A stretch of DNA of 64,000 nucleotides from Azolla caroliniana (taxonomy: Eukaryota; Plantae; Polypodiophyta): contig JBHGNT010000022.1 in NCBI GenBank assembly GCA_043228905.1, positions 744,001 through 808,000 on the forward strand, read 5' to 3'. Below the pieces are notes generated by a model. It was not told the origin of the DNA. It worked only from the letters and a program-made list of their open reading frames with translations, and searched no databases. Below, one piece after another: positions 4,456 to 62,600 of this stretch. The position numbers and the translations under genes were made by a program. Position 1 is the stretch's first letter; every line of letters begins with the position of its first letter.

Positions 4456-7400
4456 ATTATGCTTGGCTTGGGAACACAACACTCTTTTCCTTGTGACAAT
4501 CTACCTTGAACATTGTCAATCTTGCCATAGTACCAACATTTGGTTTGTTTTGATGGTTTTCTCTATCATTGAAGCTTCCCCTTCTTCTAGAATTTTCATT
4601 TACTCTCTTGTCACTTTTCGGCGCAGTTGGGAATTTGTGTTCTATGAATATCTTTCTCCTCCATTGCATAATCTATGTTAGATCTTCTTCGTCTTCTATG
4701 ATCACGAATGTCATTAGAGTGTTTGTAAGGCATTTGGGATGTGTAGACCCTTTCCTTGAACACTATTGAATTCTTTCTTAGAATTGAAGGTTGTCTACAG
4801 TTACGTTGGTCCAATAATAAAGTTTAGGTTTCCCCACACTTTGGCATCTTCGCACTCATGTTTGTATACAAAAATGTGCTCATGCACACATGATGTTACA
4901 AAATATGTTCACACTATTAGCCCCTTGTTGCCGTTTGACGTAATCAACACCAATTTGTCATTGATGTAGCCCCAATATACTTGTTTGTCAAGGAATCATG
5001 TCATTTTGTACTTTGAATTTTTGAAGTTGATTCCATCATGTTTCTCACTTGGGAGAGAGCTACCCATCAACATCATCTTATTGGTGGACGTTTTTTGTTC
5101 TAATAATCTTCCGTTGAACTTCAAAACACATGGAATGATCTTACCTACTTGGGCAAGAGGTTGTATCAAGTTAATGCTTAATGGTGAAATCACCTCAGAG
5201 GTTGCCTTCATGAGATCAATTAGTCAACCGGGTGTCAGGAAAAGTACTAAAACCGAGAGAGAATTAGTACTAGAGAAGGGATGTACTATTAGTACTAAGA
5301 GGACGGGACTACGTAAGACTCCCGAGAGAGAGAAAAGAGAAGAGGAGAGAGAGAGAGAGAGAGAGATGATGATGATAACAGATGATATATTATAGGAAGA
5401 GTATGTACAAGATGGCTATGAGGCTTATGACCGGCGTTGAACCAATTTGGTTCAAAATAATGCCTAGTGCCTTCTTTTATAGTGTTCTTAGGAGTAATCC
5501 TGAAGCTTCTAGAAGGTTCTAGAGAAATCTGGAATATACATTAATTTCCTAGAATAAAACTTAAATGAAAATAATATCCTACGTATTACAATAGATGGTA
5601 TAATGGTCAAGAGCTCAACCCATATAACATAAGGTCATGGGTTCGAGTCTTGCCATATCATGACACTATCTTCCCCTTGACTCATTGCGTTGATTGTGGA
5701 CCGGGTTTGTCCGGATACTTTCGGTGGAACTCAGCAAGAAGATCTTGAGCATTGGCGACATGCTTGATGGGTTCCCAAGTACGTTCGCCCGGACTATAGC
5801 CGAGCCAATCTACGAAATAATAAAGTTTGTTGCGAACAAGTTTGGAATTGAGGACGGCAACAACTTCATACTTCGGGCCGACTTCCAACTCAAGCGAGGG
5901 CAGTGGTGGTGTAACACGATCGGGAATAGTGTTTGCTTTGTAAGGTTCAAGAAGAGAGCTATGGAAAACTGGATGGATCTGAAGATGCGGAGGGAGATCA
6001 AGGCGGAACGTGACATCATTAACCTTACTAGTAATACGGAAAGGACCGAGTCGTCAATAATTCAACTTGTCGCACGGTCGAGTAGTCTTGATGTGACGAC
6101 GTAAGAGCCATACTCGATCGCCGATGGAAAAAGAGGAGGGAAGCCGATGACGATCCGCATAAGTCTTCTGTGTGTTTTGAGCATGACAAAGATGAGTAGA
6201 GAGATCCATCTGGATCTTGCGTAGCCTCTCCAAATGATCCTCGGCACGAGGATTGGTAGGTAGCTCTAGGGTGTCGATCACCGACCATCGAGGATGAGAA
6301 CCGGTATAAGTGTAAAATGGGGAGACACGAGTCGAGGAGTGAACAACATTATTATATGCAAACTCCGCAAAGTGGAGAATCTCGGCCCAATCGTCCTGTT
6401 GATAACTCAGAAAGCACCGGAGATATTGTTCTAGCGTTTGGTTTGTTTGTTTCGCCTGCCCATCGGTCTGGGGATGGTAGCCTGAGGAGAGGTTGCAAGA
6501 GACCTTGAGCATCTTGAAGAGATGCTGCCAAAATTTGGAGACGAATTGAGGTCCTCGATCACTGATGATACTGTCTGGGAGGCCATGATGCCGAAATACC
6601 TCACGCATGACAAGGGCGGCGGTTTCCTCGCTAGTGATGGCCTTAGTACACAGCACAAAATGTGTCATCTTCGTATATCGATCGACGACAGTTAAGATAG
6701 CATCGAACCCCTTCGAGACCAGCAGATCTGTGATAAAATCAAGACAAATAGACTGCCACGGCTTACTTGGAATCGGTAAGGGTTCCAACAAGCCATATGG
6801 ATGGTGTCAGGGCATCTTTGCTTGGCAGCAAGCATCACAAGTCCGAACGTAATCGTCGACAAAACGTCACATATGGGGCCACCAAAAGGATCGTTGAACG
6901 AGATCCAACATCTTAGTACTACCGAAATGTACTGTCGTATGGGTGTCGTGGCAATTTTGGACGATTTGAAGGCGACAGGAGCAATTGGGGACATATACAA
7001 GCTTTTTAAAGAATAACAAACCATCATGATATTCGAATTGTCAGTAGTCCATACCTGGTTGTTGCGATTGGGAATAGGATGCCAAAGAGGTATCAATGTG
7101 CGCCAGAATGTCTTGAGCAAAATTGTCTGTCTTCAAGTTCGCACGTATGACATCGGTAATCCGGGAATCCATAGGGGTGTGAAAAATCCGCATTGTGTGC
7201 AATTGTGTTGGTCCCAAGATTACTTGCTTTTGATTATCAAACGTTGGATCACTAGGACGAGGTGCAAGATATGAACATCGTGCTAGCGCATCTACTTTTC
7301 CTTGCTGCTTCCCCGGTCGATATGTGATTTTGAAGTCAAAACGCGTGAGGAATTGAACCCACCGAGCTTGTCGTCGATTTAGCACCCGAGCATTCTGGAA

Positions 7401-8363
7401 ATAAGCAAGGTTTTTGTGATCACTAAAGACGATGACCTAATGTGGAGAGCCCTCTAAGAAATACCGCCATTGCACAAAGGAATCCACAATGGCTAATAAC
7501 TCCTTGTCATGTATTTCGTAGTTGATTTCCGCGGCATCGAATTTTCACAAATGGAAAGCCACAGAATGTAACTCTTCTTTATCTCCTTGTTGAGAAAGGA
7601 TGCTACCGAGGGCGAAATACGATGCGTCAGCCTCCATGATGAATGGTTTCTTTGTATCCACATGAGCTAGAATAGGAGCTGATGTAAAGGCTTTCTTTAG
7701 ATGCCGAAAAGCCATGTTCGCTTCATTGGACCAAAGAAATGCTTGTCCCTTCTTTGTAAGTTGTGTGAGAGGTAAAATAGTCTTCGAGTAATCCTGTATA
7801 AACTTGCGGTAGAAGTTTAAGCAAAACCTAGAAAACATTGTACATCTCGTACCGTCCGTGGAATTTGCCACTCTAGCACAATTTGGACTTTAGCTGGATC
7901 CATGGAGATGCCCTTTGAGGAGATGACATAGCCTAGAAATTCCACTTGCTTGCAATCAAAGCTACATTTTTCTAGCTTGGCATAAAGACCATTCTCGCGG
8001 AGTCGTTTTAGTACTAATAGTACATGAGAATCATGCTCTTCTTGGGTCTTCGAATAAATCAATAGATCATCTAGATAGATGATCAAACAGATATCCAAGA
8101 GGTCTCTGAATATATCATTTGCCATGTGTTGGAAGACTGTGGGTGCATTGGTTAGACCGAACGACATAGCAATATATTCGAAATGCCCATACCGCGTGCG
8201 AAAGGCGGTCTTCCATTCATCTCCCAGTCGGATCCGCACGAGGTTATACGCTCCTCGTAGATCGATTTTTGTAAAAAACTTGGCACCATTAACTCGCTCT
8301 AAAAGACTTGATATAAGAGGAAGTGCATACCTATTCCAGATGGTGACTTTATTCAAGCTGCGG

Positions 8364-9534
8364 TGTCGTGAAGATCCGTCACTACGCGCGGATCGCGAGG
8401 CGGAACTGCTGGGGTTTTGGACCGGAAGGATTCGACGTTGGCACTAGCTTTAGCGAGAAAGGTTTTAAGATAGATTGAAAGAGAGAGAGATTGAGAAAAG
8501 ATAGAACGCTTGATTTTAGATTGAGAGAGAGATTAAGAACTCTTGACTTTAGTTTTCAAGAACAAGGTATATCATCAAAAGGATAACGAATTTTCTTCTT
8601 AATATTAATTTTGATTTTAAAGTACAAAGCTTTCTTTTTTCCAAAGAAAAAAAAACCTCCATTGATCTTTTTCATTCCCTCTTTTATAGATGCCCTCATG
8701 CATTTGAGGGTTCAAGACATGCATAAAATGCATGTTTGCCATTTGGCGCTCATGTATTACATGTGGTGCATGATAACCATGTCACTCATTTTAGCTCTCA
8801 TGTATGAGAATTTATATCTAAAAGTACAATGATAGAAATATAATTTCAACTAAATATCTTGGCTTAGTGGTAAGCCAATTGACTCCTAACTTGGAGGTGC
8901 AAGGTTCGAATCCTTACTTGCCTTCCTTGTATATGTATATATATTTATATATTTATTTATCTAGTCGTCGGATGCCGCCGCCGGATGCCCCCGGTTACCG
9001 GTGGCCGCCGCCTCGCCGGATGTCGGTTCCACCGGCTCGCCGGCTCCGTCGAATGTCGGTTCCGCCGGATCACCAGTTGTCGGTGTGCCATCGTCGCTTT
9101 GCCGGCTGCCACCGGATCACTGACTCCATCGCCGGTCCGGTTTTGGTTGGCCAAAACCTTTACGAGTGGCTAGGCCACCTCCACTCTTAGTTCAAGTTAC
9201 CTTGAACTCTCTATGCTCCACACATAGACACAAAGATAATAGCTTTTGCTTTACCTTATATATGATGAGAGCCGTATTTGTCGTGCCTATGCGGTATATC
9301 TCACAGTTTTCCCTTTTCCTTTCACAAACTTTATACCCTCATATCTTGACATCTAGTTGTCCGTTTCTCGTGTAATAAAGTGCATTCGAAAGCTCTTGAA
9401 GGCCTCCATCATTTTGTACTTAGATATTAAACTTATTTAAAATGTTACCTTCACTATTATTGTTTTATGTGATTCACACTCGATTTTGTACGTTTTATGT
9501 GATTTTCACACCATTGCCGAAAATCTTCACGACA
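8364..9534 (-). mobile_element. Solo-LTR-like insert with 12-bp terminal inverted repeats, inside the T1 RT gene
   Basis: TGTCGTGAAGAT...ATCTTCACGACA; 4-bp TSD GCGG/ACGG; removing it restores VVDYRSLNKV. Orientation inferred from a minus-strand TATAAAA at ~8682-8688. Confidence 0.85.
8853..8925 (+). other. tRNA-like Pol III promoter module (A box + B box) inside a solo LTR; not a bona fide tRNA gene
   Basis: A box TGGCTTAGTGG at 8860 with D-like stem GGCTT/AAGCC; B box GGTTCGAATCC at 8903 in an AAGG/CCTT T-stem; tRNA-like spacing. No acceptor stem recognisable. Confidence 0.75.
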
Positions 9535-11478
9535 ACGGTAATCAACGACGAGACGAAGTGAACCATCTTTCTTCTTGACAAAGAAGATGGGTGCACCGGC
9601 TGGAGATTTCGAATGAAGAATAAACCCGCTTGCCAAGTTCTCCTCTATGTAGGCTCGAAGGACTTCTAACTCGGTGGGTGACAAGTTGTAAATTGGTCCC
9701 CATGGTGGCTCTGCTCCTAGTTGTAAATCGATGGGACAATCATAGGGACAATGATGAGGAAGAGTACTGGCTTTTACCTTGTCAAATACATCGGCATAAG
9801 GATGATATTTCGCCGGAAGTTGCACTAAGGATTCCTCCTTAATAGTGTTGGAAGGATGTACTGATATTGCAAATAGGAACATTGCCTCCTTGTGTCCTTC
9901 TTCGCGTAATTGACGTAGTGAAATGGTCGAAACTCGATGAGTAGATTCTTGGGGTTGTCAATGTTGGACTTCTCTTGTTCTCCAATCTATGTCTGGATTA
10001 TGTAATTCAAACCAAGGTAATCCCAGGACAATGGGATGCTCTGGACTACTAATTATATTAAATGCTCCTACACACACAAAACTACCTAGGACAACTTGAA
10101 TGGGTTCTGACTCTTCTACAATATTCCTGGAAGCAATGGGACGACCATCAATGACTACTACAGATGTGGGCAAGGAAGTTTTCTTAAGGATATCGGAGAA
10201 GCTTGGGCAAAATTTCAATCCATGAAACAAGAATTGGCTCCAGAAGCTAGAAGTGCTAGGACGTGTACTGGGGGAGTACTTTTAGTACTAACCATGACTT
10301 GGGCTAGGAACACATTGCTAACTTGCTTGGAGGGAATGGAACCACTAATGGGTTGTACAGATCTAGGGTTGTCCAACCAAACGGCTCCTATTTTGGCTGG
10401 ACTCAATCGTTTAACTCTTCATCTAATTGACTAAGGATTTCAAATTTGTTTGAGATATTTGGGCTATTAGTACTATTAATATTATCAGACACTCTATTGG
10501 TACTATTAATACTATTAGACACTCCTAAGGGAAGAATTGACTCGGGTTTATTACAGGCTATGATTTGATTTACCTGTCTTCTTGGCCTATGGGGACAATT
10601 GATTGCGATATGCCCTGATCCACCGCAATAAAGAGATAATCGATTTCCATGTCGTCGTTGCTTTTCTTCTTCCGATAACGGGCCACGTCGATTCATGGTG
10701 TCGATCTCCATCGGTGTCGGAGTATTTGCTTGAGGTATGTCTCGTGCAAACGGTTTAGCTGCGACTGAGGTGTAAGTAGGCTCCGGCCTAGAGCGTGGTA
10801 TTTGTAATTGATGTTCCGAACGCCGTTCAAAAAGGCGGTTGTCGCATTGGACCGCTCGACTGATTGCCTCCGTAAGAGACTTTGGTTCTTCGGGGAAGGT
10901 TAGAAGTAGATCTTTGACATTGTTTCGCAGGCCGTAGCGAAACTGCTCCATCAGTGCTTGATCATCCCAAGGGATATCTGAAGCGAGGAGATGAAAATCC
11001 GCCGCGTAGGCAGAGGCTGGACGATCGCCTTGATGCAATCGTCGTATTTTGTTGATCACTGTCCGGATGTTGTCTGTATCTCAAAAGCAAGCTTTAAACT
11101 CACTAATAAAGTCTTCAAAGTTATTAAGTAAGGGCAATTGTTTTTCTAGAAGCGGAGCAAACCATGCCAAGGCTGAGCCGCTAAGCAACGTGCCTATTAG
11201 GCTGACTCGGGATGCATCAGTGGGGTATCGAGACGGATGCATTTGAATGACTAAGCGTGCCTGATTGAGGAATTCCCTAAATTGTGATCGCGTTCCATCA
11301 AATTTCACAGGAAGTCCAATCTTGGGATCTTTATGAAATCCTTGGGGACTTGATCCTTGTTGTTGCAACGCTGCTTCGAGTTGTTGCACACGTAACGCTA
11401 ACTCCCCATGTTGCTGTTGCAACTCCCCATGTTGTTGTTGCATTTGTTGTTTTTCTAGGGCAATTTGTTGAAGATCCC

Positions 11479-11922
11479 TATCAAGATTCGAACTCTTGAC
11501 ATGACCATGTTATAATCGAGTGTTATGTGTTAACCACACATCTAGCATATAATCATGTATATACTTCCTCATTGTAGGTTTTAGCTAGCATCATGTGCAT
11601 AATTTCTCCCTTGTATTATTAACACTTGGCACATGCATGCGTACCTTCTACCTACATGCTCTGTTGTATCACATGCGTGCAACATGTATGCATGCCACTT
11701 AGTATAAATAGTTGAGTTCACCTTGAAGGAATTCAAGGTGAACAATGCCATTCATGGACATATCAATCTAGTATTCCCATTTCGCCCATCCTCTCTCCTT
11801 GATCTTCATCTCTATCTTTATGCTCTTGTGTCATTCCCCGTCTTAAGTTCCTCGTGTTATTGCTCCGTCATAGCCTCATCATCCGTGCTCCGTCTTAGTC
11901 TGCGCTTGGTGTGTCCGTGACA
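11479..11922 (+). mobile_element. Solo LTR inserted in T1 gag
   Basis: TA(TG)TCAAGA...GTGACA; 5-bp TSD ATCCC; removing it restores RLLGDLQQIALEK; TATAAATA at 11703. Confidence 0.85.
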
Positions 11923-12206
11923 ATCCCCTAACAATCGTTGGTTTTCTTGTTCCAAGGCAACAAATTTTTCTTTTAGACACTGTAGCTCGGAGAAAACGGA
12001 TTGGTATTCTTGGGCGCTAACAGAAGCCATTGTATAGAAAAAGGATAAGAGGATGAGGGAAACCAAAAGAAACACTAGAGAGACCAAATTGGTTCAAACT
12101 GTCAGGAATAGTACTAAAACAAAGAGAGAATTAGTACTAGAGAAGTGAAGTACTATTAGTACTAAGAGGACGAGACTGCATAAGACTCCCGAGAGAGAGA
12201 AAGGAG

Positions 12207-12237
<31 letters not shown>

Positions 12238-12693
12238 TGATGATAACAGATGATATATTATAGGAAGAGTAAGTACAAGATGGCTATGAGGCTTAAGACT
12301 GGCGTTGAACCAATTTGGTTCAAAATAATGCCTAGTGCCTTCTTTTATAGTGTTCTCGGGAGTAATCCTGAAGCTTATAGAATGTTCCAGAGAAATCTGG
12401 AATATACATTAATTTCCTATAATAAAACTTAAATGAAAATAATATCTTACATATTACAATAGATGGTATAATGGTCAAGAGCTCGACCCATATAACATAA
12501 GGTCATGGGTTCGAGTCTTGCCATATCATGACACTGGGCATGCTTAGTTTTTGGTTGTTTGGTATTGTTACTCATTCTCTTTTGGTGAGGTTATTAAGTC
12601 TTACAAATAATGAAGATATCATGGGTCTACACTTTCCATTTCGATGTTAGCTTGTGCTACAAGTTTTAGTTGATGAGATAGATAGATGTTTAT

Positions 12694-20100: not shown

Positions 20101-21421
20101 GTCCAACCTGGCCAAGAATGGCCCCAAACTGGGTGATACCAAGTTATGCCGGTCTTCCCGCCTGAAGAACCCCGTTACGTGGTACGGGTACAATGACTAC
20201 ATGGCGCATCATTACGCGGTCATGACTAAGGTGGCGGAAGTGCGTGAGCCGGAGAGCTACGCAGAAGCGGCAAAGGATACAAATTGGCGTGCCACTATGG
20301 AGGAAGAAATGCAGGCACTAGATGCCAACGACACATGGGACATCGTTGACCCTCCCCGACACTGTAAACCGATTGGGTGCAAATGGGTGTACAAGGTAAA
20401 GTACAATGTCGACGGTTCGGTTAACTGGTACAAGGCCCGGTTAGTGGCGAAGGGATACACACAGACCCAGGGAATCGACTACGACGAGACCTTCGCCCCG
20501 GTAGCGAAGATGACGACGGTTCGTGTGGTACTGGCGGTTGTTGCGGCAAGGGGGTGGCATCTTCACCAGATGGACGTTGTCGAGATATTATGCAAGTGCG
20601 TGCGGAATCGAGGCGGGACCGCGGGGGTCTCGAACCAAAGAGCAAGCGAGGGAGGAGAAAGAGAGAGAACCTGCTACGCAGGACCGGGGATACACAGGGA
20701 CACGGCCCTTCAGCACGGAGAACGCGAACAGACACCGACACAGACAGATGCTAATGACTAAATATGTATATTAACAAATGGCTAACACGACTACAACCCT
20801 CGATGGGGCACAGGTTGGTTACAACCGAACAGGCCGGCGAACAGATGCCGATGCCTGTTCACTTCGACGCTCAAAGGGGGGGGGGCTGCCGGAAGCACTC
20901 GGGCGTTCCTCGAAACAGCGCGAGCCTCCTCGGAACCCTGCACACAAAACTATGGAGCTCGAGAAGGAAGGAAAACAGAGAGAGAAGCGTCCAGAAACGG
21001 TCCGACAGCACTTCGTCCTCTCCGCGCGAGATGCCTGCAACAGCTCTTTCCTCCTCTTTTTATAGCCCGACGAGCAGGCCGTCATGTCAGCTTTATTCCC
21101 TGTCCCTTTTGGACAGGGATCCGCTCCGTTTTTCACGCATCCGCGTAGTTACGCCGCCGACTCGTACAGTTCGCGCGCGCGACCGAAAAGACTGTTCGCG
21201 CGGTCTTTGTCTCCACTTGAGTTAGGGCCCGTTCCTGCCGATTATCCTCCCAATTAACTTCTATGTACAACTTGGAGCGTGCGCGCGTGAAGAACCGGTT
21301 CCCACGCCTTGGTGCGCCGATTCCGCCTATGGACGGTTTTCTTCACGACATCCGCCCCCACCTAACCGCGCATCCTCCGGTATGTGCCAAGAGAGTTGGG
21401 ACGGAGAAAACCGGCCCGTCT

Positions 21422-24400: not shown

Positions 24401-24904
24401 TCCTATGCAGGCCCGATCTCGTAAGCTGGGGTCCGATGCAACCCCTTTGATTCGGGATTCGCTGCCCTCCGGTAAGGGCGCCGCAACTGGCCTCACCTTC
24501 CGGTCCACCGTCTTGTACTTGGTGCTCACTCGGGCCGTCCGTTCCGACTCGAGCCTTCGACCGAAGTCCGCGATGACTTCGTACATTTCTTCGGAACATA
24601 CCGGTATCGTCCGGTCTTCGTTAAAGCCTTCTTCGACCACCTTCCCCAGCATTCCCAAGGTGTCGTCGAAGGAGACCGCCTCCACGGCTCCGTCGATTCC
24701 TTCGTCAGGGCCGAGAACTCCGCACGCCCGAAGTCTCCCCTCCGTCTTTGTTTTCTCTCGGCCGGTGATGCCGACCATCGTGCATGCTCCGCTGTCGGAG
24801 AAGCAAAATTTCCTACCTATTGTACACGGTTTTATCGTACAGATGTGGGGTTTTCCCGGAGCATCCGGACTGTCGCGGCCCCACGCCTTGGCAGTCCTCT
24901 CTAA
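21422..24904 (-). CDS. pol: Pol (RT-RNase H-integrase), probably expressed by -1 frameshift
   Basis: 1118-aa ORF from ATG 24778; the frame stays open upstream through the gag stop. RT (MPFLDD), RNase H (TVDTS), integrase HHCC/DDE and GPY motif; no chromodomain. Confidence 0.92.
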   Translation of the reverse strand, partial: LERTAKAWGRDSPDAPGKPHICTIKPCTIGRKFCFSDSGACTMVGITGREKTKTEGRLRACGVLGPDEGIDGAVEAVSFDDTLGMLGKVVEEGFNEDRTIPVCSEEMYEVIADFGRRLESERTARVSTKYKTVDRKVRPVAAPLPEGSESRIKGVASDPSLRDRACIGHTFTNETLRELKIGGGGFLLPAEEDRFRRMLGRHGKAFAFSPEEIGCVDPTIVEPMVIFTVPHVPWNLKPIPVPRAHVPKLMELLKQKVDMGILEPSSAPYSNRWFTVPKKNGSLRFIQDLQPVNRVTIRNAGIGPTIDEFAEAFAGRSIYSVGDLYSGYDQFQLAVESRDITTMRTPLGLVRMCTLPQGGTNSVAHMVNAMNKVLRDCIPNITMPFLDDIPIKGCPVEEKDETIGPDGCRRFVTAHIDDCEKVLQRLEDARLTFSGEKSAFGQSEIMVVGHLCGPYGRKPSPAKVEAISAMKPDCSSVTEVRRFLGACAFYHIWIPHYAHVAEPLYGLLRKGRRFEWLDKHTESVRKLKEALSAAPALRKAVYRKGTPVYITVDTSPTGIGWVVNQEDEDGNRFPIRFGAKVLSERQRGYAQVKRELWGIVSAVKADKDYLIGTEVIIETDCMPILGMVSGCATPDLAMLRWIAYIKSLDPVIRHISGKDNAMADMLSRARFDNEGGMVSEDEEVGVDFFETAYVTTDGTSTPALSDFDASKYDGEWLQIGGFLKTMTPDASWTKDEANRIRKKAYRFFLRDGYLWKHPKKRDGAPLRVVAMKEEQEELLTAYHDSPWAGHRGTWATFEKLKGKYWWPGQYQDVHRFVTTCESCQMHSIVRHRDELHPTYPPTIHFKWMVDLVTMPMGVGQMRYLVLAREDLTNQVEGRALSNKTTAAVCRFLIEDVICRYGCVGKIVADRGELDAEEAAELFDRLGVKLSLTTAYNPEANGKVERGHGPIVKALVRACRGRVANWPRLLPYALWADRTTHSSVTGYMPTELMFGQKPIMPMERTISSWATVDWRDEMSREELLAARIRQLERRPEDVELAAEKLRVARKRNKARFDRTHRLRPKKIEEGDWVLVYDSSLDNQHRATRKFARRWFGPYVVRSANDNGTYHLAELDGTRMAIPVAGKRIKAFKKRHDDEPDPALLVGSDERSKNEEEPTGEE

Positions 24905-27027: not shown

Positions 27028-27050
27028 CTTCTGCTCTTCTGCCGCCTCTT

Positions 27051-35319: not shown

Positions 35320-35413
35320 CAGAGAACCCATATCTAGTCTCATTGTGAGAAAGAGAGCACAAAAAGAGAGAAGCCAGGGATAGATCATCATCAGCACCAG
35401 CACTATCACCACC

Positions 35414-48139: not shown

Positions 48140-50100
48140 TTAAAAGATCGTGCATGCTTGTTACATGTCAACAAACATATTGTATCATCATGCAATGGCT
48201 TCATTACCTTGGCTATCACTTAAAGCCGAAAAGGTGCAGAATGTATGTTAGTCAAACAAAGGTGGTGGCAAACCATGCAGTGTGGTTGGCATTTCCATTT
48301 GCCATTTCATGCAAAGGTATTGATATGAAGAGTAGTGATTGGTGGGCTCCCATTATGTTCGGCCTTAAAGAGACGAGGACTAAGGTCTGGTACGTGCTTC
48401 TTTTGATTATTGCATTGGAGGACATTACACATAGGTTCATAAAATGCCCTATAGTGCATATAATTTTGAAGTATACTCATTTGAGATTTGACAAGTTTTA
48501 ACTCGTTGCTTTTTTTATTATAAAACGATGTCATGCCTTTCGACGCCAGATCGTTGCGTGAGTCGGGTGGGAACCGTTGGGGTTTTGGACTGGGAAGAGG
48601 AAGAATTTGAGACAAGTTTATAGTTATGGATAGATTATTAGAAAGAGAGATAGAAATCTCGTGAATCCCACTAGTGTATTGTATTTGATTAATCAATATT
48701 TAGATAAGAATATGTATTTAGATTGAAATAAAGAGATTAAAAAGAACTTGTGAATCCCACAAGTATAGACTATTTCGTGAATCCCACGCATATATTAATT
48801 GGCGTCTTTTAGAAATATATCCAATTTTCAAATATTTCACACACCTATTACATTGTGCTCCTCATCCTTATATAGTGATGAGAGAGTCTTAACAATCCAT
48901 GCTTTTTCTATAGATAGACTCTATGCTTTTTCTAAAGTGTTCATGCACACTAAATGTGCATGAGTTGCTTTTTACACTATGCCTTTATTTCCTAAATATA
49001 GTGCTCATGCTCGCTAGATGTGCATGAGTAATATTTTATTGGTTTACATTTTTCTTATAAATAAAGTATTCACGCACTCTAAAAATGCATGACTTACCGA
49101 TGTAAATAAAGGTGTTATAGGTATTAAATCTATATTTAGAACATTAAGGATAAGTTAGTACAATGGTAAGGTCGGTGTTTGTCTATGTGGAGGTATAGGG
49201 TTTGAATCTTGCCCTATGCACGTAATAAATATTTTTTTAATATTTTATTTTATTTATTATACGTACTTTAAATCGGATATAGTATTTTACATATTTCACG
49301 TAGTGTGTGATTCACACTACGACAACGATATTAAGTGTTTTTACACTCCAATATGTACAACTCATAGATATTCAACCATATTACTCCAGTACGCGTTAAT
49401 CATCCTGCAATATGTAAAATTTCAGAAAAACACCATGTACCTTCATGGTTGGGCTGCCAAGGTGGAAATAACCATTTTGGCACACCATCTACATAATCCA
49501 CGAAGGACGAATCTGACGATGATTGTTGAAAGAAAAGTCTCACAACTTCCACCGTGTCTGAAGATCCTTCCAACTCTTCATATTAAGCTCGTATTTCGTA
49601 ATTAGGTCAAATACCATAGAGCAATGATTGTCTCCTTTGGTCGACTTTCTTCTTCCGCAAGACCTACGTTGCATCTAGGTTTCCAAATGTTCCATAGCGT
49701 GATAGAGGCTATGGGTGGCCAGATGTCACTCAGATTATTTGAACACCAAATTTGCAATTCCCTTACTGGTTGTACGATGCATTTATTTCTTTGCACGCAG
49801 AATGCCTTCAGCCTACCTAGGTCTCTTGATATCCAAGCTTACCTTGTTATTTGAGGCCTCAACAATGGGTTTTTGCTCATTATGTTCAAAATGGTCCAAA
49901 TGAAGAGTTGGAGATATTGTTCCAATGTTTACGATGTTGGGGATTGCAACACAATTAGAACATGCATAATCCTTTCATGTTCGATGGTAGACCTAGGGTG
50001 AAATTCTATGCGAAGAAGTTGAACTTAGGCATTCTCATGTGAAAAATTTGGATGTTATAACATGTGAGGACCATTTCCTCGAGTGTATATTCAGGTTTTC
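48140..50100 (-). mobile_element. Degenerate LINE ORF2 C-terminal remnant
   Basis: SITLWNIWKPRCNV resembles the LWxIWKxRN motif of L1/Tx1 ORF2; upstream fragments are Cys/His- and Trp-rich; split by the 48529 insert. Confidence 0.55.
48529..49324 (-). mobile_element. Solo-LTR-like insert related to 8364-9534
   Basis: TGTCATG...TACGACA; 4-bp TSD ACGA; shares GGGGTTTTGGAC near the left end and an A/B-box module (49156-49210) with the 8364 element. Confidence 0.8.
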
Positions 50101-51113: not shown

Positions 51114-54100
51114 TGTTACGGGCATGACCATATAATATCCCGTGGTGAGAATTTACCGTCGTATTCTATACACGTGGATAAGTGTGAGGGTTAAACAAGA
51201 GTGTAGAGAAGGGGAGGATTACTTTTAAATCCTCGGGATTGAGACAACCCATTAGGCCAAGTGTGAACTTGCCTGGGGGCCTTGGGTATCGCTATAAATA
51301 AGAGGCCTAGCTACCCTCATTTGACCAGCTAGTTGACTACGTCGAGACTCTGTCTTGTGGTGGGTCAACTCTTGTAGCAAGCGCGCCAACACCAGGTACG
51401 ACTCGACGCCACGACGGTGGTATGGGACGCCGATCGAGGCTCGAGTCTGTCTCGATCCCTTCGCTCGGGGGTGGTCGGGTGGATCGACACCCTTCTTTCT
51501 CTCTCTCCTTTCTTTCTATCTACCTTGATCTATCCTTATCTAATGCTTACTTTAGTACATGTCTCTAATATTTGGTATCCGAGCCTTTGTACTAATGTTT
51601 CTTTTGTTGGTCTTATCTTCTCGATGGATGGCGATCGATCGTTGTGCGGTTGGCCTTCATGCAGACAAGGATCAACAAGGAACTTCGGTAATCTTTCTTG
51701 TTATTTTTTGTCTATTTTTTCTTCTCCCATCTAATCATGTGTATGGTTAATATGCAGATTATTTTCATTAATTAAATGATGTTGTAGTGGTATTTAATTG
51801 GTTATCTAAAACGTTTACATATGTGTACGAGGTTAATACCTCAATTACGTATTACGTTCACGAACATATGTTACGTTTGCGTATGAGGTCAACACCTCGA
51901 TTTTGTTGTAAATGATATTAGTTTCGTCTCGTATGCGTAAGAGGTTAATACCTCAATTGCGTATTACGTTGAACCCTTATTTTTGGATGTCTCATGTGCG
52001 TAGAGGTATATACCTCGATTACATATCTCGGTTACGTCAATTTTGGCTATTAAATATAACGATTTCTTTTATATACGCATATGTGGTCACGTGTATATGT
52101 AGTTGATCGTATATATGTGATAATATACATATGTGTATATAAGTTATTACGTGATTTTAAATCGAATGTTTTCCTTTTCGGGGAAAGGATCTTGGTGGCC
52201 GTCCTCACTTTTTTGTGAGAATCGCATTGTCACCATCCCTTTTTTCAATAATTTTTTATTGTTGAAATCCCCATTGGTGACTTCGATATTTCGTTACATA
52301 AAGAAATGCTATAGACATAATGATTTTGAGTACGTAGGGCTTGACCTACTTCATGTGAGGTCGCTCTTATGACACACATATCCAACATCCCTCCCTCATT
52401 ACATGGATACGATGCCACCATGAGATCATTCTTATGAGAGGCATTCGTAATGACGTGACCATGTGATGGGCCACATGGGCCTACTACGAAAAGAGGGCTC
52501 ATTTGGCTTGACCATTTGGTTGCACTTTGGTATATGCCATCGTAATTATGAGACTTGAGGTTAGGTAACGTACCAACATAGTTGTAGTAAATGAGGGCGA
52601 AATAAGGACTCTTGACATATATGTTTCTTTTAAAAAAACATATATGGGCAAATGCCTCACATATTTCTTATAGGCATGAAACATTAAACATTCAAGAAGA
52701 GCAACTTACTTGGTTGGCTCAAATGTTTAATGCATTTGTTCTCGAGGTCTCGAGTTCAAATATGACTAAGACCATACAACATCGTTGATAGATATGACTA
52801 TAACACATGTTTAGACTTGAGGTCTAAGTGCACTTCGGGGTCCTCGCAATAGGACTTAAAGAGCCGAAACCACATATGTGGGCACCGAAACATAGTTTAT
52901 TGTTAACATTTTTTTCGTGTATAAACTATTCATGACGCGAACATACATGGTTGAGCCTCGGGGAGCCACCATGAAAAAATCGATATAGAGATCAGGGAAA
53001 GACATTTATTTGTCACCCCCATGGTTTTTAAAACACCTTTGTGTTACCATAGTAACCTGATCTTGAACCTCATCTCATCCGTCTACAGGGGTATTGACGT
53101 GAGATAATGATATCGATTAATGCTCGCCCATGATAGGTTTACATCACGACATGTTGTTATGACTATCTCTCTAACCTTATCCTATTTCTTTTCCAGAAAT
53201 AATCATTTAATGGCTCAAAATAACGACTCGATGTCCTCCGCTCAAGCGGAAAGAACTCAAGGGAATCCTCCTGGACAAATGTCCATTGAGATGTATTTTT
53301 CGCAAATAACCCAATACCTTAGTTTCACCGCTCAACAGATGACCGAACTTCGGCAATCTCAAAGTGCTCTCGAGGCACGTGTCATTAGTCTACAACGTGA
53401 GACTAATAGACCTGATGAGTGATAGGGTGAACCATCGTTTGTCGTTAAGCCATTTACGGGAGACAAAAAGGAAAGAACCAAAGAAGCAATCTGCACGTGG
53501 TTGGGCCGATTGGAGTCTCATTTTGAGCTCTATCCCACACCAGATAGTACGAAGATTGCATATGTTGGCCGAGAACTAGGGGGTAAGGCCGCCACCTGGT
53601 GGCGTGTGCTCCGTACGTTGGGGAAATTGCCCGATACCTGGACAGATTTTGTCACAGTTTTCAAGGGCCAATTTCTGTAACCTCCCTCTCGAACCGAGGC
53701 AGCACATGCTTTAATGAACCTCTCTAGTTGGAAATTTTCCTCGCTAGAAGATTATGTCCACCATGCTAGAACCCAAATCCAAAAGTCGGGTCTAGAAGAG
53801 GACAATTGGTTAATAGCTTGTTTTGTCAATGGCGTCCCCAATTCGGACTATCACTGGATAGTGCACGATAAGGATCCAAAATCCTTCGAAGAGGCCGTTG
53901 AAATAGTTCTTCGCTATCAATGCACTTCGAAGAAGGACCACAACAAACCCAACGAAGCGCCCGGGACTAAGTAGTCGCAATTCGCTGGGAAACGCAAGAC
54001 ACCCAACGAATTCATGGATCGCGATTGTAAGCGTCAACATCCTTTTTGCGTATTCTGCAAAAAGAAGGGTCATACAAAAGAGCAATGTCAAAAGCTCCAA

Positions 54101-56578
54101 CGGAAAGAGCACGACAACAAAGCTAAAGATGCAGACAATAAAGGTCAGATTCCTAATGTCCTTCAGGTCTATACACATCATTTAAGTAATTGTCAATATT
54201 GTTTCCCTCCCTATGTATTGGGTCCCAATGATTTACTACGTGTAAACGGGTATATCAATGGATCTCCCGTACAATTTTTATTTGATTCGGGAAGCTCCCA
54301 CAATTTTGTGAATGATCGTTTGGTTCAGATATGTGGAATCCAACCCACCGTAAGTGATCACACCTACACGGTGCACTTGGCTGATGGAAGAGTACAATAC
54401 ATCAACGGGGTGATTCATTCATTAGGAATTTCGATTAACACTTATATAGAGGAAGTAGACTTCCATGTAATGAATCTTTGTACCACCGATGTAATACTAG
54501 GTTATCCTTGGTTTTATAATAAAAACTCTTCTTTATCTATTGATTGGGTTCATCATTCAATTACATTTGTACTGAACGATTGTACTCATTTTATTCAATG
54601 TGTAACAAAACAATCCCTCTCGATTGTTTCCTCGTGTCCATCAATATCCGAGTTGTCTTGTTCTACTCTATTTGATTGTGTACTTGATCCGGACATTCAC
54701 GTTTACAATATCGATAATGTCTCGGTTCAATCAACATATTTTGAACAACAACAACTTGATGAAATCTTAAATGATTTTCGTGATATTTTTCCGAGTGAAC
54801 TACCAGATGGCTTACCTCCTAAACGTAATATACCTCCTTATCGCTTAAGTCGATCCGAAGAGGATGAGGTATCTAAGCAACTCAAGGACTATTTATGAAT
54901 GGGTTATATACGTTATAGTAAATCTCCATGGGGTGCACCAGTTCTCTTGGTTAAAAAGAAAGAGGGCACATGGCGTATGTGTATTAATTACCGACGCTTG
55001 AATAAAGTGACGATCAAGAATTCGTATCCATTGCCCCGGGCTGACGATCTAATTGACTGTCTCCAGGGAGCTTGGTATTTTACGAAACTTGATCTCCGTA
55101 CTGGCTACCAGCAAATTTGTATAAGTGAGGACGATGTTCCTAAAACAACATTTCGTACGCGCTATGACCATTATGAGTTTCTGGTTATGCCTTTTGGTTT
55201 GACCAATGCTCCGGCTACATTTCAACAAGAAATGAATGACATTTTCCAAGAACAACTTGGAAAATTTGTCGTTATTTTCTTGGATGATATTTCAGTTTAT
55301 AGCCGTACATTACAGGAACATGCGAAACATGTCCTCTTTGTTTTACAAACATTGCGTGACAAACAGTTTTACGCGAAGATCTCAAAATGTGAGTTCTTCA
55401 AGAAATCAATTACTTATCTTGGACATCTCATAACCGAACGAGGAGTTGAAATTGATCCTTCTCGCATCGAGAAAATCAAGCTTTGGCCCACTCTTCGGAA
55501 TATTCGAGAAGTTCGATCATTCCTTGGTTTTGTTGGGTTTTTGCGAAAATCCCTTCGTAATTACTCCCAATTGACGACGCCGTTTACTGATCTTCTAAAA
55601 GGTCAAATGCGTAAGTCTACAAAACCTATTGTGTGGAATGCTACACTAGACCTTGCTTTGAAAGAACTCAAGGACCTGGTATGGAAGGCTCCTTCACTTC
55701 TTTTACCCGATCCTTCAAAACCTTTGGAGGTTGGAACCGATGCAAGCGATTATGCTATAGGTGTTGTCTTATATCAAGATGGTAAACCAATAGCATTCGA
55801 GAATAAGAAACTTGATTCTGCTCAATGTCGGTATACCGTTCAAGAAAAGGAATTATTTGCAGTTATACATACGCTCAAAACATGGCGCCATTATCTTTAT
55901 GGAAATCGCTTTGTGGTAACTACAGATCATGAGTCCTTGAAATATTTTTGTGACCAACAAGACCTGAAAGGTCGTAAAGCACGATGGGCTAATCTCATCC
56001 AGGACTTTGATTTTTCCATACGATATCGTAAAGGTTCCATGAATATTGTCGTTGATGCACTAATTCGCATCCGTGAAGTTAACATGCTTAGCTTCACTGA
56101 AACAACATCAGTTATCTTTATGATCACCTTCGAGGAAAGTATCTGTCATGAACACGACCATTATGGCGTCACCCGAACTTGAACCTCGAACCTTGTAATC
56201 CATACTTGAAAACCTCAACCATTAAGATAGCTTATTGTTATATGAAACAATAAAAGCTACTTCTTGTATTACATTGATTATTGTAAAACCCCTAGATTAT
56301 TCTAGAATGTTCTAGAATGTCTTAGAGCATTCTAGAACATTCTAGAAATCTCTAAGCTATTCTATAGGAACCTATAAATAAAGGCATACATGTATTCTCA
56401 AATCAATTCGAATCAACACCAATCTTTAGCTCTCATTACATATCTTGTATCCATTCTCTTTCTTTCTCTATCTTATACATCCATTCTTCTCTTAGTATTT
56501 CGTTCCTTTCTTCTTGTGTTCTCTAATATCCTTCTTCCATCACTCTATCTTTTATCCCCCGTTCTAACAGTTTGATTC

Positions 56579-56613
<35 letters not shown>

Positions 56614-59600
56614 CTCCTTTGTAACCATCCTGAAACCATGGCTGCCATTAACTCAGAAGAATATCTCACCCTTGTTGTAGAAATGGAGAACCTTAAATCC
56701 AAGTTCGCATCTCTTGAAGTAGAGAATCAACGTCTACTTGGGGATCTACAAAAGGTTACTATAGAGAAGCAACAACAACAAGAGGAGTTCATGCGACGAG
56801 TGCAACAGTTAGAGTCGACAATCGTAGTGTTACAACAACAAAGCGTTGAAGGTCAGGAACTTATCAAGGAGCCCAAAATTAGCCTCCCAGCTAAATTTGA
56901 TGGGTCGAGGGCGCATTTCCGAGGTTTCTTGAATCAAGTACGGTTGGTGATTCAAATGCATCCGACGCGTTATCCAACAGATGCATCACGAGTCGGGCTA
57001 GTGGGCACCTTATTGACTGGCATAGCATTGTTGTGGTTTGCTCCATTGCTAGAGACCAATTCTCCTCTACTAAATAATTTCGAGGAACTTATCAAGGAAT
57101 TTAAGGCTTGTTTCGGAGATACTGATGGGGCGAGAACAGCTATCAACAAGATTCGTACACTTCGTCAAGGTGATCAACCAACTTCGACATATGCTGCCAA
57201 TTTCCGTCTCATCGCAAGCGATATTCCTTGGGATGAACAAGCCCTAATGGAGCAATTCCATTCAGGCCTTCGTAGTGATGTCAAAGACTTACTTCTTACC
57301 TTCCCCGAGGATCGAAGTTCATTTACAAAAGCTATTAGTCGAGCAATACGGTGTGATAATCTCCTTTTTGAGCGTCGATGTGAGCGACAACAACAAATAA
57401 CAAGATCAAGATTCACACCAACTTATGCATCAGTAACTGCGCAATCGTCCCCAAGGCAAATGTATAGCCCTACTCCAACTCCAAGGCAAACACGTAGTCC
57501 AGTCCCAATGGATAGTCCTGCACCCATGGAGATCGATATGACTCAACGACGAGGACCGTTGTCAGACGAAGAGAAGCAACGTCGTTGAGCAAACCATCTA
57601 TGCTTATATTGCGGAGGTCCAGGACATATAGCCATTCATTGCTCCCGTAGGCCGAGACGTCAGGTAAATCAAATTCACTATGACAATAAAAATGAGTCCA
57701 ACATTTTAGAAGTAGTTAGTGAATCTAATATTATGAATAATCCACCCTTGTCCAATAAATTTGAAGTCCTAAGCCAATTAGAAGAGGAGTCAAATGAATA
57801 AGTCCGGCCAAAATAGGAGCCATTTGTTTGGACAACCCTAGATATGTACAACCTAGAGTGGGTTCCATTTCTTCCAAGCATGTTACTAGAGTCTTCTCAG
57901 CCCTAGTACAAGTTAGGACACCCAATTGTCAACTTCAAGTCCAAGCCCTCTTAGATACCGGAGCCAATTCTTGTTTCATGGATAGAGATTTTGCCCAAAA
58001 ACACCAAATATCCTTGCATACACTTCCTTGTCCAGTTTCCGTAGTAGTGATTGATGGACGCCCCATAGCTTCCGGGAAGATATTTGAAGAGTCTGAGCCA
58101 ATACACATACTCTTGGGGGATTTAGGATGTGTAGTTTCATTTAACATAATCCGTAGTCTTGAGCATCCAATTGTCCTCGGTTTGCCATGGTTTGAGCTAC
58201 ATAACCCTAGAATCGATTGGAGGAAGCGAGAAATTAGGTGCCCTTTAGCAGAAAATATCATTGTCAAGGATCGAACTCGGGATTATCCTCCTAAAGTATA
58301 TAGTTCTACCGATGCACCATATCCTTCTCATCAAATTTCAGCCATCACATTGCAACAATTGTGCCAAGTGGGAGGCAAGGAGGACCTTTTCTTATTTGTA
58401 GTATCAGTGACACCTTCTAGTGTCACTCAAGGGAATTCAGACATCCAAATTCCCAAAAAATATCAAGACTATGCTGATGTTTTCGATAAAGTCAAAGCTA
58501 GTGTTCTTCCAAAGCATCGGTCGTACGACTGTCCTATTGATCTCCAACTAGGAAAAGAGCCACCATGGGGTTCGATTTACAATTTACCACCCACTGAGCT
58601 TGAGGTTCTTCGAGAATACATCGAGGAAAATCTTGCACATGGGTTTATTCGACATTCAAAGTCTCCAGCTGGTGCTCCTATCTTTTTTGTGAAGAAAAAG
58701 GACGGCTCCCTTTGTTTGGTCGTGGACTATCAAGGCTTAAATAAAGTCACCATAAGGAATAGGTATGCTTTACCTTTAATCTCCAATCTCTTAGAACGCA
58801 TTGGTGGGGCAAAGCATTTTACCAAAATTGATCTAAGGGGTGCATATAATCTTGTTCGAATTCGGCCGGGAGATGAGTGGAAAACAACATTTCGTACTCG
58901 GTATGGTCATTTCAAGTATACAATCATGCCTTTTAGGCTCACAAATGCACCTACAGTATTCCAACATATGGCAAATGACATCTTCCGGGATTTCTTGGAT
59001 ATTTTTCTAATCATCTACCTAGATGATCTATTGATTTACTCTAAAACACAGGGGGAGCATGATATACATGTGCGACAAGTACTTGAACGCCTAAGGAAGT
59101 ATGGTCTTTATGCCAAACTTGAGAAATGCAGTTTTGATTGCAAACAAGTCGAATTTTTGGGATACACTATTTCATCCCAGGGTGTTTTCATGGACCCGGC
59201 AAATGTCCAAACAATATTGGAATGGAAACCCCCATGCTCAGTTCGGGATGTTTAGTGTTTCCTTGGATTTGCGAACTTCTATCGCAAATTCATACATAAT
59301 TATTCAAGCATTGTGTTGCCCCTTACTCAACTCACCAAGAAAAATCAAGCATTTTTTTGGAGTATCGAAGCGGACAAGGCTTTTACGCAGCTGAAAGAGG
59401 CATTCACATCAGCACCCATCCTAGCACATATTGATTCTGAAAAGCCATTTACTATTGAGGCAAATGCATCGGACTTTGCATTGGGGAGTATCCTATCGCA
59501 ACCAGGCGAGGACGGGCAGACACATCCATTCGCGTTTCACTCGAGAAAATTTACTGTTTTGGAGATAAACTATGAGGTGGATGACAAGGAGTTACTAGCT

Positions 59601-62600
59601 ATGGTCGACTCATTCGAGCAATGGCGTCATTTTCTAGAAGGATCACCTCATCAAATTATCATTTATAGTGATCACAAAAATCTCACATATTTTCAAACTG
59701 CTCTAGTATTAAATAGATGCCAAGCTCGGTGAGCCCAATTTCTAACGCGTTTCGATTTCAAGATCATTTTTCGCCCCGAAAAACAACAAGGGAAAGCAGA
59801 TGCTTTGTCTCGGCGTTCGTATCTAGCACTTCAACCTGGAGATCCGGCCTTTGACAATCAAAAGCAAATTCTCCTCGGGCTATCAAAGCTACAGGTAACA
59901 ACAATTTATGCCACACCACTTGATTCTACCCTTCTTGACACTATTCGGCAACAACTTCATTAAGATGATTTCGCTAAGGATGTCTTAGCCCACTGTGGTT
60001 CAAGTCGTCCATCTTGCTCCACATTGCCAGGGTCATCTCAACATTATTAGGACTTCAAGTGGCAAGATGGCTTACTCTTCTACAAGAATCTCCTTTATGT
60101 CCCCGATGGATCACCCTGACTTCAAGTGTTGGAACATTGTCATGATGCCCCCATGGCTGGACATTTTGGTATTTCCAAGACCATTGAGCTGGTGAAACGT
60201 TCGTTTTGGTGGCCTCACTTGCAAAAATTTGTCGAAGATTATGTTTGCACTTGTGACACTTGCTATCGTGCCAAAATACCTCGGCATCACCCTTATGGCT
60301 TACTACAACCATTACCCCCTCCCAACAAGCCATGGCAGTCTATTTCTATGGATTTCATTACGGATCTGCCACCTTCCAAAGGTTTTGATACTATTTTAAC
60401 AGTAGTGGATCGGTTCACCAAGATGACACATTTTGTACCATGTGTAAAGACCATCAATAGTGAAGAAACTCCAGATCTCATTATGCGTGAAGTGTTTCGC
60501 CATCATGGTCTCCCGAATGATATTATTAGCGATCGAGGTCCTCAATTTATCTCACACTTTTGGAAGCACCTATGGGCAGGCCTCAAAATCTCTTGCAAAC
60601 TCTCTTCGGCTTATCATCCACAAACTGACGGACAAATAGAGCGCACAAATCAAACGCTCAAGCAATATCTTCGATGTTTCATTAGTTATCAACAAGATGA
60701 TTGGAGTAATATTTTACATCTTGCCGAGTTTGCATACAACAACACGGTCCACTCTTCTACCAAAGTTACACCTTTCTTTGCCTACACTAGAAACCACCCT
60801 CGATGATGTATACTGAATCTTCCCGAGGTGTCATGAAACCCTAGTGCGGCGCATCACCTCCACCGACTACAACAAATCCAGTTCGAGTTATCGTCACATC
60901 TTCAGAAAGCGCAAGCACACCATAAGACCAATGCCGATTGACATTGTCTTAAGTCTCCATTTAAGGTTGGTGACCGTGTATGGTTGCTTCGTCGTCACAT
61001 CAAGACTACCCGACCATGTGCTAAGCTTGACTATCAACACTTAGGTCCTTTTGTCATCACGGCGCAGATTAATGATGCAACATTTCGTCTTAACCTCCCT
61101 GCACATATGCGGCTTCACCTTGTCTTTCATAGCTCTCTTTTGGAACCTTGCCGCACCTCTTTAATTCCTAATCGTGTCGTGCCACCACTGCCTTCTGTAC
61201 AACTTGTGGACGACCCCGAATACGAGAATACGAGGTAGCTGCTATTCTCGATTCTAAGATTGTGCGCAATAAGCTTTATTATCTAGTTGATTGGCTTGGC
61301 TATCCTCTGAATGATCACACTTGGGAACCCATTGATAACGTTTGTAATGCTGAAGCTCTGGTCAACGACTTCCATCGTCACTATCCAAACAAGCCTGGCC
61401 CAACAATGTTAACACCGACTTCCACTCGGCGTTCTCGAAAGAGGGATAGTGTCATGAACACATGACCATTATGGCGTCACCCGGACTTGAACCTTGAACC
61501 TTGAACCTTGTAATCCATACTTGAAAACCTCAACCATTAAGATAGCTTATTGTTATATGAAACAATAAAAGCTACTTCTTATATTACATTGATTATTGTA
61601 AAACCTCTAGATTATTCTAGAATGTTCTAGAATGTCCTAGAGCATTCTAGGTCTAGAACATTCTAGAACATTCTAGAAATCTCTAAGCTATTCTATAGGA
61701 ACCTATAAATAAGGGCATACATGTATTCTCAAATCAATTCGAATCGACACCAATCTTTAGCTCTCATTACATATCTTGTATCCATTCTCTTTCTTTCTCT
61801 ATCTTATACATCCATTCTTCTCTTAGTATTTCGTTCCTTTCTTCTCGTGTTCTCTAATATCCTTCTTCCATCACTCTATCTTTTATCCTTGGTTCTGACA
61901 GTATCCTGATGACAGTTATTTCGCAAAATACTGGGCAAGAGTTGAGTCTGGAACAGACACCACCACATCCTCGAAGGAATACTTCCACATTGCTAACGGT
62001 ATGCTCTACCGTAATGGGAAGGTTTGTGTTCCAGATTTGCCTGAGGTCAAAAAGAGAATTCTTTTTGCATGCCATGATGCACCCTCAGCAGGGCACCCTG
62101 GAATACATCGTACACTCGTTCTCATCTCCACTCAATTTTATTGGCCTAGGATGTGCCCTGACATACATAGCTATGTGACTAAATGTCACCAATGTCAGGT
62201 TAACAAAGCCAAGAGACTTAAAGCCGCAAGACTTTTACATCCCTTGGACATTCCCAACAATAAGTGGAAAAGTATATCCATGGATTTTATTGTTAGAATT
62301 CCTCGCACCCAAAAAGGCCATGATGCCATCTGGGTTGTGGTTGATCGACTAACTAAAATGGCCAAATTTATTGCTACTAAAACCATGGTAACAGCTCTTG
62401 AATTGTCTTACCAATTCGTTGACGAGTTATCTCGTTTTTATGGCTTACCGATGGATATTGTGAGTGATCGAGATCCAAAGTTTACTAGTGACTTCTGGAC
62501 GCAAGTCTTTAAGAAGTTAGAAACTACGTTGAGCATGAGCTCCACGGATCATCCTGAATCCGATGGACAGACAGAACGAGTAAATCAAATTATTGAGGAC

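Follow-up and report, generated by a model that had tools for sequence, protein, structure and literature searches.

The 64-kb window analysed here, from the fern Azolla caroliniana (contig JBHGNT010000022.1, positions 744,001 to 808,000; all coordinates below are those of the window), is made up of stacked long terminal repeat (LTR) elements, and a prediction made from its sequence alone, hereafter the original prediction, held that five different LTRs carry tRNA-like pairs of RNA polymerase III (Pol III) A and B boxes, sites (a) to (e). The degenerate Ty3/gypsy chromovirus T1, of Tcn1 type, occupies 5233..12533 (- strand), with LTRs at 5233-5667 (3') and 12101-12533 (5') that are 94.9% identical and a target-site duplication (TSD) of CCGGG/CTGGG. 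A second Tcn1-type chromovirus, T2 (56144..61900, + strand; LTRs at 56144-56571 and 61451-61900, 97.2% identical; TSD GTATC), is inserted within another chromovirus, T3 (51114..63802, + strand), which lacks the module, served as a negative control, and has a primer-binding site (PBS) that is presumably of the tRNA-Met type. T1 and T2 (5.8-7.3 kb) retain remnants of gag, reverse transcriptase (RT), integrase and chromodomain, and each has a self-priming PBS, with a 15-nucleotide (nt) complement inside its own LTR in T1 and a 12-nt complement in T2. Their translations show a C-terminal chromodomain (EYEV/KYEV ... DWLGY) with aromatic-cage residues as judged by eye, and PF00385 was matched in close homologues.

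The other three carriers are solo LTRs. LTR e (11479..11922, + strand; 5-bp TSD ATCCC) sits in T1 gag and is of chromovirus type, its relative in L046, a locus of the survey described below, coming after a chromodomain-like end. LTR b (8364..9534, - strand; 4-bp TSD GCGG/ACGG), which sits in the T1 RT region, and LTR c (48529..49324, - strand; 4-bp TSD ACGA) are 66.6% identical. LTR c is also 69% identical to an LTR in survey locus L072, which comes after a chromodomain-less pol end, and that pol end is 60% identical to a young element at 20578-27844 (- strand; 4-bp TSD ACGT) that itself gives no chromodomain match. The young element is a non-chromovirus Ty3 element, apparently of the b/c lineage, interrupts a Copia RT region, and has LTRs 99.7% identical (with 2 differences over 773 nt), two open frames, 726 and 1172 amino acids long, and a PBS resembling the RSV PBS; it is free of the module and provided a second negative control. 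By way of c and L072 we infer that b is likewise of non-chromovirus Ty3 type (Phygy/Selgy/OTA), and the PBS of the young relative suggests that the b/c lineage is probably tRNA-primed. The five different LTRs of the original prediction therefore reduce to two lineages, one chromoviral (a in T1, d in T2, and e) and one probably non-chromoviral (b and c).

Antisense A/B-box modules in U3

We scanned both strands for TRGYNNARYGG and GGTTCRANYC, which we take to be the A- and B-box consensus, with spacing counted from tRNA position T8 to G53. The predicted sites top the ranking, and (a) to (d) lie where they had been placed. Modules without mismatch occur on the + strand in the 3' LTR of T1 (a, 5596..5649; A box 5596-5606, AGGTC 5632-5636, B box 5640-5649, the last ending 18 nt inside the outer LTR end), in its 5' LTR (a', 12464..12517), where the module points outward into host DNA, and in LTR b (8860..8912; spacing 44). 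The module of LTR c (49156..49208, + strand; spacing 44) has 1 mismatch, C56 to T. Those of T2 lie on the - strand, in the 5' LTR (d, 56229-56176; 2 mismatches, spacing 45) and in the 3' LTR (d', 61544-61484; 1 mismatch). The tRNA-like spacing that had been predicted is seen, at 44-45 nt, throughout (a) to (d), except at 61544, where a 7-nt duplication lengthens it to 52; the gap between the boxes is 32-33 nt, in the window as in the chromovirus survey, and AGGTN stands at tRNA positions 44-48 in (a) to (d). Every module is in U3 and antisense, on the strand opposite the TATA box and 115-280 nt upstream of it (170 and 280 nt in b and c), as the original prediction had it.

Such pairs are more frequent than in shuffled sequence. 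In 200 block-wise dinucleotide shuffles of the window, with spacing set to 43-46, perfect A+B pairs averaged 0.0 (none in 200) against 3 in the window, pairs with at most 1 mismatch 0.015 against 4, and pairs with at most 2 mismatches 0.49 against 7; in the scan of the window itself, two background hits, at 58319 and 38033, also have 2 mismatches. Background scores (6-9 mismatches over the three-part motif) were obtained for T3, for the young element and for stretches of Copia-type and other LTRs.

Site (e) (11485..11618, - strand) calls for a correction. Its B box (11494-11485) is real, but the proposed outer A box (11544-11534) is weak, with 2 mismatches and a spacing of 51, and the region appears duplicated and rearranged. 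An inner A-box remnant (11618-11608) is homologous to the intact A box of L046, and this relative of LTR e has an intact module (1 mismatch, spacing 46). Site (e) is a decayed, rearranged copy of the module.

The modules are not tRNA genes. ARAGORN at default settings found no tRNA in the window and, in 42 survey loci, only two tRNA genes, both outside the modules; at lowered thresholds it returned an uninformative 40-409 calls. A search of Rfam gave no match to RF00005 and no tRNA, and the cloverleaf implied by the tRNA-like structure of the original prediction is not kept, with no stem covariation (below). Locus L023 has real tRNA genes, Asn and Thr, at 552-627 (+) and 831-906 (-), beside a truncated Tcn1-type element. 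We also rejected a tRNA-derived SINE (short interspersed nuclear element) insertion as a description of these sites, since in the chromovirus LTRs 11-63 nt follow the B box, and both LTRs of an element, and whole families, have the module. The absence of a SINE tail, as predicted, is borne out for T1 and T2, but in b and c the B box is followed by an A/T-rich run, which could be the remnant of one.

Nor are the modules copy-specific. Both LTRs of T1 and of T2 carry them, and contigs of four public sequencing runs (presumed DNA) aligned in large numbers to the T1 LTR (1118-4597 contigs per run) and the b LTR (316-1212; 4/4 runs), in agreement with the predicted replication of the module with its element.

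Three further observations concern T3 and T2. In the T3 LTRs (about 51255-51265, -) a perfect antisense A-box 11-mer stands some 30 nt upstream of the T3 TATA box, but a B box at the distance usual in tRNAs is missing. Inside the T3 5' region a unit at 52707-52762 (+) resembles an A/B-box pair, though a weaker one, and includes AGGTC; it is sense in orientation, is followed by a T run about 150 nt later and is possibly a SINE insertion. The T2 LTRs have palindromic TCTAGAA repeats between module and TATA box (56292-56347 and 61604-61699), with similar words in T1; these palindromes could extrude hairpins.

Conservation of promoter positions across related chromoviruses

We scanned metagenomes with an alignment built on the SH3-chromodomain region of T1 and obtained 111 matches, of which the best 80, in 78 loci, were used; this search pattern confines the sample to one clade, and the hosts in the assemblies may be few and related. 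Fifty-nine loci were evaluable, having a junction of polypurine tract and LTR and at least 150 nt of LTR. Left out were 13 loci without the junction and 6 that were too short, and this omission did not favour the result, as L004, L039, L040, L050 and L076 among them show the module. A locus was called positive if the module lay within the first 200 nt of the LTR with at most 3 mismatches.

The module is antisense in 48/59 LTRs and sense in 0/59, so that its orientation is far from random; 0.17% of 590 shuffles and 0/43 internal controls were positive. Positive loci come from 15 assemblies and make up 23/30 clusters at 85% identity and 7/11 at 65%. The spacing is 45 nt in 28 loci, 44 in 19 and 43 in one, and in an earlier pass that permitted 40-60 nt nearly all strong matches were still at 44-45. 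In 48/48 loci 11-63 nt separate the end of the B box from the outer edge of the LTR, and a TATA-like motif lies about 100-207 nt inward of the module in 16/23 representatives. In a tree of 63 rows, each with at least 90 aligned residues and drawn from sequences other than Tcn1 references, all chromovirus carriers fall in one clade (support 0.88). The module is lacking in the outgroups L054, L055 and L064 (42-44% identity) and in T3, and the losses within the clade (L037/L046, L042, L044, L047) are secondary. Scans of viral contigs found no relatives.

In nine deep representatives, seven chromoviruses together with b and c, identity is 95% at the invariant positions and 87% at positions 44-48, as against 38% in the spacer and 33-37% in the flanks; integrase-chromodomain identity among the seven chromoviruses is 63-76%. 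As positions 44-48 were unused in finding the modules, they form an independent check. The boxes have therefore not decayed at the neutral rate. One could suppose that a SINE or tRNA inserted once into an ancestral LTR and merely hitchhiked, as the single clade of chromovirus carriers, the loss of the module in several families and the tail-like A/T runs of b and c would suggest. Spacer and flanks are near saturation, however, at 33-38% against 87-95% for the boxes, the length of the spacer is fixed, and, of the 23 families, 11 have G57 and 10 retain the B-box CpG, whereas the observed/expected ratio for CpG in U3 is 0.59. Such neutral descent may account for the origin of the module but not for its maintenance; as a full explanation it is largely refuted and we give it hardly any credence. 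The module is real, under selection and lineage-wide, as judged from these comparisons.

What is kept is a set of promoter positions. G53, T54, T55 and T47 occur in 23/23 family representatives, G45 and G46 in 22/23 and C56 in 21/23, and positions 10, 12 and 59 are free to vary (at 59, A10 G8 T5). There is no covariation in the D, anticodon, T or acceptor stems of the family representatives, where Watson-Crick pairs compare with permuted values as 39/100 vs 39.6 (D), 35/125 vs 35.9 (anticodon), 52/125 vs 50.8 (T) and 43/175 vs 38.2 (acceptor). No fixed terminator follows, the first run of four T (T4) lying 0-1027 nt downstream. This lack of covariation and the variable distance to T4 point to a DNA element and not a defined RNA; what selection maintains is therefore a promoter in the DNA and not an RNA resembling a tRNA. 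The original prediction had offered, as one possibility, an outward-directed RNA; one of defined structure or length is disfavoured by the same observations.

The pattern also bears on a possible role in the genomic RNA, in whose sense U3 a tRNA complement could pair with a host tRNA and aid strand transfer. The orientation and place of the module agree with a precedent reported for human immunodeficiency virus 1 (HIV-1; see below), the conserved positions are common to most tRNAs, and the b/c lineage is probably tRNA-primed. Yet T1 and T2 self-prime and need no tRNA, the free positions 59, 10 and 12 within the conserved blocks would break the duplex, changes that wobble would tolerate are no commoner at G18, G19, G53, T47, T54 and T55, and the anticodon region and stems are saturated, all of which makes pairing very improbable.

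The positions that are conserved are those with which TFIIIC, the factor invoked in the original prediction, is known to make contact. TFIIIC makes base contacts in the B box (PMC11811891) and also contacts a base lying upstream of that box, and transcription responds to changes at +44 to +47 (PMC11724288). The A box positions tauA and is dispensable for TFIIIC affinity, and TFIIIC tolerates 31-93 bp between the boxes of type 2 promoters, a range within which the 32-33 nt gap of the module falls (PMC11724288). Conservation at these positions fits the recruitment of TFIIIC and in this respect agrees with the original prediction. Since the A box is unneeded for affinity, its retention suggests loading of TFIIIB, and AT content is 81% at 8-48 nt upstream of the A box, as opposed to 64% further on; together these features suggest a complete promoter able to load TFIIIB.

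A promoter that is complete might be selected for its product, an antisense RNA that tunes expression, feeds small-RNA production or primes the plus strand; from the 3' LTR the transcript would cross the start of U3 and the polypurine tract and go on through the end that codes for the chromodomain. Both the A box and the AT-rich tract have been retained, which a transcribed gene would require, the orientation is invariant, and in 20/48 loci a T4 lies no more than 25 nt past the LTR end. The other 28/48, however, have no T4 nearby (it may lie anywhere between 0 and 1027 nt away), no fold is conserved (the mean z-score for folding is -0.93, in a weak test, as the real L023 tRNAs themselves reach only -1.1 and -1.8), and a transcript from the 5' LTR would consist mostly of host flank. 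We consider selection for such an RNA unlikely, even if the promoter is real.

A candidate outward barrier

We suggest that the module is a type 2 Pol III promoter of tRNA origin, made up of the A box, positions 44-48 and the B box, lying antisense in U3 and conserved across a Tcn1-type clade, and that it likely binds TFIIIC and would serve as an outward barrier, keeping the RNA polymerase II (Pol II) promoter open; we put the probability of this reading as a whole at roughly 0.5. TFIIIC would bind the antisense A and B boxes, TFIIIB would load on the AT-rich tract upstream of the A box, and the two, on the outer side of the Pol II promoter, would form a barrier or an anchor of open chromatin. 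Since the 3' LTR serves as the template for U3 and both element ends receive a copy, every fresh insertion would come with a barrier of its own, placed between host DNA and the TATA box. A chromodomain with an aromatic cage is expected to steer insertion to methylated chromatin, where such a barrier would be useful. In yeast, tRNA genes and ETC (extra-TFIIIC) sites are TFIIIC-dependent heterochromatin barriers (PMC12409998), and by analogy a barrier is the most likely role here. The parts of this proposal differ in strength. That host TFIIIC binds the module is, on the conserved positions, probable; that TFIIIB loads and that there is some outward Pol III transcription is somewhat more probable than its opposite; and that selection favours the module because it shields the Pol II promoter against heterochromatin or methylation in the flanking DNA is a claim for which we see the odds as even. 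L037 and L046, in the first 130 nt of whose 3' LTR the A box is lost and the B box kept or duplicated (coverage of the L037 contig 71), are a B-box-only variant found in nature, one that would look like an ETC site.

The boxes could instead be an upstream activator of the Pol II promoter, with TFIIIC and TFIIIB bringing TATA-binding protein or clearing nucleosomes near the TATA box, or a tether of cDNA or provirus that steers integration, in neither case with a barrier. The TATA-like motif keeps within a limited distance of the module (in the chromoviruses about 100-207 nt, in b and c 170 and 280), TFIIIB would lie between module and TATA box, and module b follows the TATA box more closely than the LTR end. 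The distance to TATA nevertheless varies twofold, whereas the B box lies within 63 nt of the LTR end in 48/48 chromovirus loci, and the nested insertions b, e and T2 are in coding regions and not at module start sites; we regard activation or tethering as improbable. Two simpler notions were rejected. An integrase attachment site does not fit a B box at a variable 11-63 nt from the LTR end, and a landing pad for Pol III-targeting elements is not indicated, as no nested insertion in the window lies at a module start.

Several observations weigh against the barrier reading. The module is absent or broken in 11/59 LTRs, including 3/34 on contigs with coverage of at least 8 (L037, L042, L044), and so is dispensable; the young element and T3 do without it. 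Because TFIIIC accepts 31-93 bp, the strict spacing of 44-45 nt is not demanded by binding alone, and position 10 is non-canonical (not G) in 14/23 families. Module b lies about 620 nt from the LTR end and not at its edge. The chromovirus families share ancestry and so are not independent observations, and tests within families are weak. Among the 40 best-supported T1 variants listed, 26 sites fall in the 191 nt before the module, 3 inside it and none at box positions (0/23 variable against 29/241 elsewhere, P=0.06); in diverged T1 subfamilies the A box is altered mostly at degenerate positions, and 1/3 T1 forms has a mismatch. Among the b variants listed, A-box changes are two purine swaps, neighbouring positions being variable at 32/95, which gives P=0.007 for consensus-breaking changes and 0.16 if purine swaps are counted; this listing is blank in about the first and last 30 nt of the stretch, a zone that includes the B box, so that silence there was not used. 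In the published LTR of Selaginella SM-Tcn1 we saw, by eye, no antisense B box and tandem repeats in its place (PMC2864245). Finally, the literature consulted documents barrier activity of tRNA genes in yeast and mammals and not in plants.

The module would bear on how LTR elements can go on being transcribed once they have inserted into heterochromatin. If the barrier reading is true, every insertion installs its own insulator, a cis-acting anti-silencing strategy that needs no element protein, and large fern genomes are seeded with very many TFIIIC sites. Fern genomes are very large and LTR-rich, and A/B boxes in high-copy LTRs could titrate TFIIIC, shape genome folding and confuse the annotation of SINEs or tRNA pseudogenes. 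A conserved outward Pol III promoter beside a Pol II promoter is a sharp, mutable target, in which a single substitution within the B box is expected to prevent TFIIIC from binding, and it offers a test of whether TFIIIC barriers exist in plants at all.

The window also contains an intron-rich gene for 3-oxoacyl-ACP synthase II (about 35400-41580, +), an exon of which is 91% identical to a protein of Ceratopteris richardii, the best named match, the angiosperms listed reaching at most 87%. A tandem array of units of about 48 nt (34058-35033) lies directly upstream of this gene.

Comparison with known systems

A chromodomain and a self-priming PBS define Tcn1, which is listed only from mosses and club-mosses (Neumann 2019, PMC6317226). 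Over the RT core T2 and SM-Tcn1 share 99/123 residues (80%), counted by eye and with the fern clades Galahad and Mordred outside the comparison, and they have in common the aromatic-residue chromodomain and the same self-priming PBS/LTR pair (PMC2864245). The latter paper states no evidence of self-priming for SM-Tcn1; inspected by eye, however, the SM-Tcn1 sequence shows 14 nt of complementarity between its LTR and the bases that follow the 5' LTR, almost as T2 does.

Chromatin boundaries with A/B boxes are known from host loci and SINEs. Mouse B2 SINEs are mobile boundaries, which the abstract of the report ties to CTCF and to lowered expression of neighbours (PMC8136502), and they are a precedent for a mobile element able to carry a boundary. 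Like these and the yeast tRNA and ETC barriers, the modules would be A/B-box DNA acting on nearby chromatin, but the cases consulted are host loci or SINEs, none of them inside the promoter of an LTR element and none shown in plants (PMC12409998; PMC8136502).

The U3/R region of HIV-1 reportedly contains a tRNA-Lys3-like sequence, which Piekna-Przybylska et al. are said to have proposed to pair as RNA with the primer tRNA. HIV-1 would thus share with the fern elements a tRNA-gene-like sequence in the U3 of a coding LTR retroelement; unlike it, T1 and T2 do without a tRNA primer, and in them conservation is confined to promoter positions.

Pol III promoters within plant LTRs have been described in TRIMs (terminal-repeat retrotransposons in miniature). 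The LTR of Cassandra contains a 5S (type 1) Pol III promoter under selection, in ferns too (PMC10886601; bioRxiv 10.1101/2023.07.14.548913). Cassandra is thus likewise a plant LTR element with a selected internal Pol III promoter, but that promoter is of 5S type 1, sits in a non-autonomous element and drives transcription of the element. Helenus, of the TRIMp3 group (Kojima 2024), is nearer still, having tRNA-derived LTR sequence that is conserved around boxes A and B and unlikely to be a functional tRNA, so that the general idea of the original prediction had a published forerunner (PMC10886601). Helenus has one plant family (Selaginella), is non-coding and shorter than 1.3 kb (TRIMp3 elements are non-autonomous and about 0.3-1.3 kb), and is proposed to have arisen by SINE insertion into an LTR, its tRNA part transcribing the element itself (PMC10886601); in Helenus-1_SMo that part is in sense orientation (PMC10886601 supplement). 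Only TRIMs are analysed in that paper, which mentions tRNA similarity in "not a few LTRs", and the words "antisense" and "opposite" do not appear in its main text. The modules share with Helenus the tRNA-like A and B boxes within an LTR and may share its origin by SINE capture. They lie antisense, and the elements that carry them are of gag-pol type, 5.8-7.3 kb long and equipped with a TATA box; in these two defining features, coding content and orientation, they differ from TRIMp3/Helenus, and membership of that group was rejected.

A search of the open-licence literature, Repbase entries lying outside it, yielded no account of A/B boxes placed antisense in LTR elements of plants that code for protein. 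It is somewhat short of an even bet that coding fern LTR retrotransposons acquired a Pol III promoter of tRNA type on two or more occasions, or on a single one with transfer between lineages, and kept it outward as a portable TFIIIC-dependent barrier. In comparison with Cassandra and Helenus, the coding elements described here extend the capture of Pol III promoters in LTRs beyond the known non-autonomous TRIMs, in antisense orientation and for what would be a use other than the production of genomic RNA.

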